Of a stretch of DNA of 64,000 nucleotides, positions 5,882 through 7,333 are shown piece by piece. The stretch spans positions 1,056,001 to 1,120,000 of the forward strand of contig OZ244742.1 of NCBI GenBank assembly GCA_965219415.1. The letters are read 5' to 3'. Within the stretch, counting starts at the first letter, position 1. Every line of letters starts with the position of its first letter. Position numbers and translations under genes: made by a program. Under the pieces are notes generated by a model. The model saw nothing but the letters and a program-made list of their open reading frames with translations, was not told where the DNA came from and did not search any database. The DNA is from Candidatus Marinacidobacterales bacterium (GTDB lineage: Bacteria; Acidobacteriota; Vicinamibacteria; Marinacidobacterales; DATDRI01).

Positions 5882-7333
5882 CTAGCCCTTAATCACACCC
5901 ATCGGGCGGAGTTGTGCGACCTTCTGGCTGATGCCCGCTCCCTGAACCACATCCACGACTTCCGCGACGTCTTTGTAAGCCTCCGGAATCTCTTCCACCA
6001 AAGTGGCTCTCCCTGAGGCTCGGACGATGATCCCCTGCTCTTCCATCTCGCGAACGATGGCGCGTTTGCCGGCGGTCTTCCGCGCCTGGCGACGACTCAT
6101 CCGCCGCCCGGCACCGTGGCAGGTACTTCCAAAGGTCTCCTGATAGGCGCGCTCCGTGCCCACCAAAACATAAGAGTAACGGCCCATGTCCCCGGGGATG
6201 AGGACCGGTTGTCCAACCGCGCGGTAGGCGGAGGGAATCTCGGGATGGCCGGGTGGAAAGGCTCGCGTCGCTCCCTTACGGTGGACGCACAGTTTTTTCT
6301 TCTTGCCTCCGACCCGATGCTCTTCGAACTTAGCGATATTGTGGCAAACGTCGTAAACCAAACCGAGGCCGAGTTTCCCGCGGCCAATTCCGAGCACCTT
6401 CTCGAAGCTCTCGCGCACCAAGTGCGTGATCATTTGCCGGTTAGCGAAGGCGTAGTTGGCGGCCGCCGACATGGCACCTAGATAACGCTTCGCCTCTGGA
6501 GAGGTCAGAGGTGCGGCGCAAAGCTGGCGATCGGGGAGCTCGATGCCGTACTTCGCGGAAGCGCGTAGCATGATCTTCAGGAAGTCGTCACACACCTGAT
6601 AGCCGAGCCCGCGGGACCCGGTGTGGATCGAGACCGTCACCTGTCCGGGGAATAGACCTAGAGCATCGGCAAGCCTCTGGTCGTAGATTTCGGCGACGTA
6701 CTGGATCTCGCCAAAGTGGTTCCCCGAACCGAGCGTCCCCAGTTGCGAGCGCCCGCGTTCGATGGCGCGGGGACTGACCTCGTCAGGATCCGCACCCTCG
6801 AGGCAGCCCCCTTCTTCGATGTACTCGAGGTCAGTTTCGGTTCCGTAGCCGTTGGCCACTGCCCAACCCGCACCTCGCGTGAGAACTCGTCGCAACTCAG
6901 ACTGGGGGAGCTTGAAATCGCGACGGTGCGCCCCGACACCGGTTGGAACATTGGCAAAGAGGGTCTCGACCAACTCCCGGAGTTTTCCGTCGACGTCCTC
7001 GCGACTCAGACCTGAGCGCAGTAGCCGGACTCCTCAGTTGATATCGAAACCGACACCCCCCGGCGAGACCACGCCGTCGTCTTCGGGCGAGAAAGCGGCA
7101 ACGCCCCCAATCGCGAAGCCGTAGCCCCAATGAATATCCGGCATCGCGATGGACCGGCCTACGATACCGGGAAGGGACGCCACGTTGGCCACTTGCTCGA
7201 GGGCAGGATCCCCGCGAAGGGTGTCGACGAAAGACTGGCTCGCGAAGACCAATCCCTCGACACGCATCTTCCCTTCTCTCGGGAGCCGCCAGCGGTTGTC
7301 GTCGATTTTCTGAATCTTGACTTTGCTTGCCAT
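5882..7333 (-). CDS. rtcB: RNA ligase RtcB (archaeal/eukaryotic-type length, 483 aa) with in-frame TGA at catalytic Cys; candidate selenoprotein
   Basis: One continuous frame: [74 protein letters not shown] before ATG 7333; TGA at 7034-7036 is codon 100. Confidence 0.93.
6992..7033 (-). promoter_or_regulatory. putative bacterial SECIS element directly 3' of the rtcB in-frame UGA
   Basis: mRNA UGA-GGAGUCCGGCUACU-GCGCUCA-GGUC-UGAGUCGC-GAGGACGUC; apical loop starts 21 nt after UGA; CAGGUCUG equals the fdhF SECIS core. Confidence 0.75.

Follow-up and report, generated by a model that had tools for sequence, protein, structure and literature searches.

An in-frame UGA followed by a SECIS-type hairpin in an acidobacterial rtcB gene points to selenocysteine at the metal-bridging position of an RNA ligase

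The rtcB gene of a Marinacidobacterales bacterium has an in-frame UGA where its studied homologs encode the cysteine that bridges the two catalytic metal ions, and the small hairpin that lies just downstream of this codon is very probably a working bacterial SECIS element. Beyond this, and with a confidence that tips only slightly towards acceptance, we propose that RtcB is a real, so far uncatalogued selenoprotein family in which selenium would bridge the binuclear Mn site of a non-redox RNA ligase, and in which selenocysteine (Sec) and Cys forms would still interconvert within single populations. The gene was examined in a 64,000-nucleotide stretch of contig OZ244742.1 (positions 1,056,001 to 1,120,000 of the forward strand), which we refer to in its entirety as the window. 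The features that matter here are as follows, in window coordinates.

5882..7357, minus strand: rtcB gene of 491 codons, of which one is an in-frame UGA; an alternative start is the ATG at 7333
7034..7036, minus strand: predicted Sec codon UGA, rtcB residue 108, aligned with Cys98 of P. horikoshii RtcB
7001..7019, minus strand: core hairpin of the predicted SECIS, with a GGUC loop (7009-7012) on 4 bp, a bulged U (7004) and 3 further bp
6992..7033, minus strand: span of the outer lower stem of the earlier note (7032..7027 with 6998..6992), unsupported as part of the element
7354..7767, minus strand: archease gene (RtcB activator family), Pfam Archease E 7.8e-41
7776..7803, minus strand: promoter-like site upstream of archease-rtcB, TTGACA-16-CATAGT, 10/12, a consensus match only

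When the UGA is read through, the product is recognizable as RtcB over its full length. Specifically, Pfam RtcB (PF01139) matches residues 55-491 with an E value of 7.7e-178 and the UGA falls inside this match, while T. thermophilus RtcB (2EPG) aligns at 632 bits with the metal-ligand and His-nucleophile motifs retained. Of the metal ligands and the nucleophilic His, only the bridging Cys deviates, being replaced by U; this residue, U108, is aligned to the Cys of GFDINCGVR in the T. thermophilus protein. UGA ends 1050 of the 2359 open reading frames (ORFs) longer than 400 codons in the genome, so the codon keeps its role as a stop in the genome at large. Archease itself ends in a UGA that overlaps the ATG of rtcB (AUGA, 7354-7357), such that within one and the same operon UGA is a stop for archease and then, 320 nt further on in rtcB, a putative Sec codon. 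Elsewhere in the window, an inverted repeat at 7964-7990 (TTGGCACTC-N9-GAGTGCTAA) lies upstream of an Hsp20-like ORF (8023-8469), which is followed by groES-like (8531-8821) and groEL-like (8893-10536) ORFs. The repeat resembles a CIRCE heat-shock operator and is a putative element of this kind.

NCBIfam holds no Sec-specific RtcB model, and the best match of the rtcB product (P0001) in that collection is to the model for intein-containing RtcB, under its cut-off. This match is split in two, precisely at residue 107. Since Cys98 of the P. horikoshii protein is described as the splice junction (PMC4150793), the position of the split suggests that one and the same residue serves as intein insertion site and as Sec site.

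The hairpin itself, GCG-CUCA/GGUC/UGAG-U-CGC, is present at 7019..7001 of the minus strand, and its GGUC loop begins 21 nt after the UGA, as the earlier note on this DNA had reported in both respects. The minimum free energy fold from ViennaRNA contains it, and it is also the best local hairpin with a G-containing loop, at -8.9 kcal/mol, a value computed in a 28-nt local window whose size may differ from that used by the authors of the SECIS model. That model, as given in the Fig. 2 legend of PMC13188914, sets four conditions: 3-9 nt in the apical loop together with 4-16 bp in the upper stem; a G at one or both of the first two positions of the loop, most often as G then G or U; a limited distance from the UGA to the loop; and a minimum free energy no higher than -7.5 kcal/mol. 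The rtcB hairpin agrees on all four counts, with a loop of 4 nt (GGUC, G first), an upper stem of 4 bp and 3 bp more beyond the bulge, a 21-nt spacing from UGA to loop that is within the published limits, and the energy just given. It is located downstream of an in-frame UGA aligned with the Cys of homologs, in a genome that encodes SelA, SelB, SelD and tRNA-Sec, and by the criteria of this model it is a predicted SECIS of the ordinary bacterial kind. The possible lower stem that had been proposed beneath it, GAGUCC/GGACGUC, fares differently: it can form in the window, yet across 13 related sequences it is 80.8% paired, with one pair broken in 9 of the 13 and no compensatory change.

The likeness to the E. 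coli fdhF element that had been pointed out holds when examined on the E. coli K-12 sequence. The two hairpins have the 8-mer CAGGUCUG in common; the fdhF GGUC loop starts 18 nt after its UGA and the rtcB loop 21 nt after (3 nt, or one codon, further); and fdhF has its bulged U in the 5′ strand, rtcB in the 3′ strand. The fdhF 17-mer used for that comparison corresponds to nt 12-28 after UGA140, with the loop beginning at nt 19. In the E. coli fdhF element the bulged U, the loop G and the loop U are all required.

Taken alone, this hairpin is weak evidence. The fold of 66 nt has a z-score of +0.85, with 160 of 200 shuffled sequences folding at least as well, and when 2500 in-frame positions were drawn at random from long ORFs of this genome, 14.4% had a G-loop hairpin at least as good 14-27 nt downstream. 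Since neither the single-sequence fold nor its energy is significant, the significance of the hairpin comes from comparative data only. A scan of positions 6800-7200 against Rfam, with E values up to 10, matched no family and returned only a chance snoRNA match.

Comparison within the window's own clade reveals strong constraint on exactly these nucleotides. RtcB matches are present in 21 of 61 related genomes, and in the window's family the Cys codon is TGA in six of seven genes (G000-G005) and TGC in the remaining one (G006). The six TGA-bearing genes are 79-100% identical in protein sequence and contain no other stops or frameshifts over residues 1-491. In a codon alignment of the seven, codons +5 to +11 (L-R-S-G-L-S-R) rank first among 200 windows in synonymous conservation, none of 100,000 random sets of seven high-degeneracy codons is equally invariable, and the only run of five invariant third positions falls here, the next longest being two. 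Furthermore, Ser and Gly in the hairpin are encoded by UCA and GGU, which, with shares of 5.9% and 19.4%, respectively, are the least used codons for these amino acids in the long ORFs of the genome; both are retained in 18 of the 19 Sec-type genes that have S-G-L at this place. With metagenome sequences added to give 13 relatives, all seven stem pairs are invariant in 13 of 13, and the only variation lies in the bulged base, seven times U and six times C, and in the fourth base of the loop, C in ten sequences and U in three. The stem in the window's clade hence shows conservation without covariation. The bulge is absent altogether from L133-L135 and L139, such that the bulged U, presented in the earlier note as a feature of the hairpin, is not conserved; on these alignments, the bulge is not to be treated as a SECIS determinant.

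Evidence from other lineages adds both breadth and covariation. Two collections were scanned with the DNA pattern G-F-D-I-x-TGA-G-V-R: the genome_contigs collection yielded 20 pattern stretches, 9 of them true RtcB genes with in-frame UGA, and the metagenome_contigs collection yielded 48, 24 of them true RtcB genes, and these counts are lower bounds because the pattern demanded Phe (TTY) before Asp and missed GYDIN-U genes. A sample selected by homology only comprised 401 genomes of the phylum, 163 of which carry RtcB at E <= 1e-60; TGA occupies the Cys site in at least 13 of these 163 genomes (G000, the genome of the window, included), among the matches listed (150). All listed entries flagged with a stop were inspected, and some were set aside: in G175, G274 and G334, with one TGA each, the TGA is at another position and the Cys site reads TGT or TGC, and both G100 (two TGA) and G087 (one TAG) have TGC at the Cys site. 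The Sec genes newly found by homology read GYDIN-U. Seven of them have the hairpin of the window, in four cases in a bulge-free form (GCGCUCA-GGUC-UGAGCGC), one has a CGGGUU loop and one is of the AGUUC type. The other three, L160, L161 and L163, present GGUC at nt 22-25 on the unrelated stems CGGACC/GGUCUG, GAGAACC/GGUUCUC and GCGACC/GGU-CUGC.

Over all scans, TGA was found at the Cys codon of 44 distinct RtcB genes, and the comparison set of 84 distinct sequences consists of these 44 Sec-type and 40 Cys-type genes. Either GGUY at nt 22-25 or AGUUY at nt 19-23 is present in 42 of the 44 Sec-type genes versus 5 of the 40 Cys-type genes, a comparison subject to ascertainment bias in that most Sec-type rows came from the TGA-targeted search. 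In the homology-based sample, hairpin energies of -8.9 kcal/mol or lower occur in 10 of 12 Sec-type versus 10 of 26 Cys-type genes (medians -11.25 and -8.4 kcal/mol), and the separation of the two types by energy alone is weak.

Compensatory change is found in a sister clade of 20 sequences, all from the pattern scan, whose hairpin occupies nt 12-30 and ends in the loop AGUUC or AGUUU. Its stem occurs in the versions GCUCGGC/GCUGAGC, GCUCAGC/GCUGAGC, GCUCGCC/GGCGAGC and CUUGAGG/CCUCAAG; all 7 bp are 100% paired (133 of 133 cells), and 5 of the 7 pairs have changed on both sides. None of 500 shuffles reaches this covariation, which is made up of few events (two lineages of two sequences each and one G-U/A-U/G-C column), and sliding the partner strand cuts pairing to 28-41%. 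In a tree of 37 rows (at least 420 residues each, after removal of shorter sequences and merging of 3 duplicates), one clade with a support of 100 unites 24 Sec with 2 Cys rows; because most Sec rows were found via the TGA search, the tree cannot serve as evidence that Sec arose only once. One sequence, L064, from a metagenome-assembled genome labelled Thauera, has TGA at the RtcB codon yet lies among the Cys-type sequences in the tree. Its hairpin also differs (CGGCC-UGAAGGC-GGCCG, with the loop 25 nt after the UGA), and it may represent an independent origin of Sec or an error.

The comparison with Cys-encoding homologs had been put forward as a check on the hairpin, with equal presence in them as a refutation, and its outcome has two sides: an identical hairpin does occur in two Cys-type genes (L020 and L138), but it is not equally present, as 35 of 40 Cys-type genes are without the loop motif versus 2 of 44 Sec-type genes. 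L020, carried by G006, is nested among Sec genes (SH-aLRT 96) and is 99.27% identical over 2460 nt to a metagenome contig, L126, which has TGA where L020 has TGC at the RtcB site; G006 retains SelB and tRNA-Sec. The difference between these two looks like a Sec/Cys polymorphism within one population, and on the strength of this DNA identity we read L020 and L138 as recent Sec-to-Cys conversions that keep a remnant of the signal. Stages of decay are visible among other Cys-type relatives: L140 keeps the stem under a GGGCCU loop, and the hairpin is lost from L137 and L130 (the latter, from G209, enters this description and the counts as one row). Likewise, three of the five motif-bearing Cys-type genes (L029, L039 and L041) are without a stem, at -2.7, -4.7 and 0 kcal/mol. 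Remnant SECIS-like structures have been described after the Cys codons of FdhA and HesB-like genes in Sec-decoding organisms (PMC1794560).

The machinery needed to decode a Sec codon is encoded in the same genome. The tRNA-Sec scores 69.7 bits and is called tRNA-SeC with anticodon TCA by ARAGORN, and SelB, SelA and SelD score 375.8, 569.7 and 328.3 bits, respectively; a tRNA scan of the window itself found none. The assembly, G000, consists of 3 contigs with 8.45% contamination, in which rtcB lies on C1, SelB on C2 and tRNA-Sec, SelA and SelD on C3. In its relative G001, assembled as one contig, rtcB-TGA, SelB and tRNA-Sec are on a single molecule. The selD gene (G000:C3:3889655-3890587) has one in-frame TGA of its own.

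TGA-interrupted ORFs were also collected de novo and searched with Pfam, which identified at least 13 other genes with a Pfam match across an in-frame TGA; a single domain spans the TGA in 12, and L047 and L059 have Pfam domains on both sides of it. The candidates include FdhA, four AhpC-TSA/Prx proteins, a deiodinase-like protein, Thioredoxin_3, OsmC, two CMD proteins, a rhodanese, a methyltransferase, DUF3179 and two FG-GAP/ASPIC proteins, and in their hairpins the G is first (or second) in a loop 15-25 nt after the UGA. Set beside these, as the earlier note had advised, the rtcB hairpin fits the group and is among its weaker members: of the 14 other candidates with Pfam support (the alpha/beta-hydrolase row excluded), 11 are stronger. 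L054, L056, L057 and L060 were dropped from the list of selenoproteins for want of Pfam support, and the CoxS/CoxG pair L058 was dropped as probably two genes. L050 (G000:C1:1793006-1793857) is an alpha/beta-hydrolase ORF whose Pfam match contains an in-frame TGA, with a hairpin of 7 bp located 25 nt after it, and is either a candidate selenoprotein or a pseudogene. It is also worth recording that L047 (G000:C2:205447-208269) and L059 (G000:C3:4030978-4034643) are paralogous large FG-GAP/ASPIC-UnbV/redoxin proteins in which the in-frame TGA stands in a common motif, KD[TL]-U-S[LF]FWR, and is followed by a G-loop hairpin (one of the loops being GGUCG). The terms FG-GAP and ASPIC have 0 occurrences in the 2026 selenoprotein catalogue.

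The contention that the hairpin provides evidence of recoding independent of the codon itself is thus supported by its agreement with the SECIS model, by synonymous conservation, by compensatory changes in a sister lineage and by the full Sec machinery. Nonetheless, other readings of the same data deserve consideration. Selection for something other than Sec insertion, for instance ribosome pausing, mRNA stability or the site of a regulatory protein, could maintain the hairpin, which would then just happen to stand beside the UGA and be found in Cys-type genes too. The identical hairpins of Cys-type L020 and L138 fit this idea, as do the retention of LLRSGLSR in the Cys-type proteins P0002-P0004 and the lack of covariation inside the window's clade, but the loop motif goes together with TGA (42 of 44 versus 5 of 40), the motif-bearing Cys-type genes L029, L039 and L041 are stemless, and L140, L137 and L130 exhibit decay. 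Given also that L020 is only 0.73% of bases away from a TGA contig, and that geometry and distance agree with the SECIS model and with the other selenoprotein genes of this genome, we consider a role of the hairpin outside Sec insertion improbable.

Still less probable, in our judgment, is that the UGA is a true stop or is suppressed in some other way (a split or decaying gene, or near-cognate read-through), with the hairpin a by-product of the amino acid sequence. The closest database proteins (P0005, P0008 and P0012) are indeed C-terminal fragments of 363-375 residues that start after the UGA, and the hairpin by itself is not significant; however, TGA recurs at one catalytic codon in 44 distinct genes, both halves are conserved at 79-95% identity with no further stops, and rare synonymous codons are fixed within the hairpin. 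Neither half could work alone, as Asp95 and Cys98 are at the break and His203, 234, 329 and 404 are downstream of it. An error of sequencing or assembly, or DNA foreign to the organism that has the Sec machinery, is scarcely credible: although G000 has 3 contigs and 8.45% contamination, with rtcB and the Sec machinery on different contigs, the same TGA is present in many independent assemblies, C1 also holds selenoprotein genes including FdhA, AhpC-TSA, OsmC, CMD and DUF3179, and all of the parts are on one molecule in the single-contig relative G001. We hence retain the reading in which the hairpin is very probably a functional SECIS.

What was observed directly comprises the sequence and its fold, the way in which this fold is conserved and covaries, the Sec machinery and the residue alignment; from these a course of events can be proposed. 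With UGA108 of rtcB in the A site of the ribosome, SelB loaded with Sec-tRNA(Sec) would bind the GGUC loop 21 nt downstream through its C-terminal domain, and selenocysteine would be inserted in place of termination. The product would be a full-length RtcB RNA ligase with selenium in place of the sulfur that bridges the two catalytic metal ions, and selenium may be of benefit at this metal site, for example through resistance to irreversible oxidation. The bridging Cys links metals M1 and M2, an Ala substitution there eliminates all steps of ligation, and this Cys has been found oxidised to sulfonic acid in a crystal (PMC9745838); it is described as essential and as inactivated by oxidation (PMC9745838, PMC10630183), and the equivalent Cys122 of human RTCB is protected by a dedicated oxidoreductase, PYROXD1 (PMC10630183). 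It is also relevant that an engineered P. horikoshii RtcB, U98, made via a UAG/EF-Tu system, cleaved itself (PMC4150793), suggesting that Sec at the bridging site is not trivially tolerated.

A natural Sec at the bridging position of RtcB would make two ideas testable, namely that selenium protects the metal site from irreversible oxidation and that it alters metal preference. If the assignment is true, Sec and Cys forms of RtcB constitute a natural experiment on the choice of Sec at an oxidation-sensitive metal ligand. Our literature searches found no natural Sec-containing RtcB, although one may be listed in the supplements of large screens, and in the main text and table of a 2026 review covering 119 families/subfamilies, the terms RtcB, ligase, splicing and PF01139 have 0 occurrences. 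Public gene calls cut Sec-type rtcB to fragments of 363-375 residues, and as a consequence RtcB, and hence RNA-repair capacity, is under-annotated in these Acidobacteriota-labelled lineages.

It is useful to view the rtcB hairpin and its gene in light of the known systems that they most resemble. Compared with the consensus bacterial SECIS model of Zhang and Gladyshev, no difference was found, the stem being at the short end (4 bp in the upper part). As in fdhF, the hairpin lies inside the coding sequence right after the UGA, its GGUC tetraloop is closed by A-U and C-G, and a 4-bp upper helix is followed by a single bulged U and then 2-3 further pairs; the AGUUY-loop hairpins of the sister clade likewise resemble fdhF in having G-U at nt 20-21. 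Unlike in fdhF, the bulge of rtcB is on the 3′ strand, and it is U, C or absent among rtcB relatives. The Cys-type genes recall the FdhA and HesB-like remnants described in PMC1794560, in that L020 and L138 keep the hairpin, it decays in L140, L137 and L130, and the organisms retain the Sec trait; unlike the remnants described there, one Sec form and one Cys form of rtcB are less than 1% of bases apart. The engineered U98 RtcB (PMC4150793) would have Sec at the same residue, but unlike that protein, the natural TGA-bearing genes have been maintained by selection. Finally, the gene shares with the Cys-type RtcB 3′-phosphate/5′-OH RNA ligases (P. horikoshii PH1602, T. thermophilus TTHA1785 and human RTCB) the same fold family and active-site motifs, and with ligases of this type an archease partner gene upstream; it is set apart from them by a predicted Sec in place of the Cys that bridges M1 and M2.
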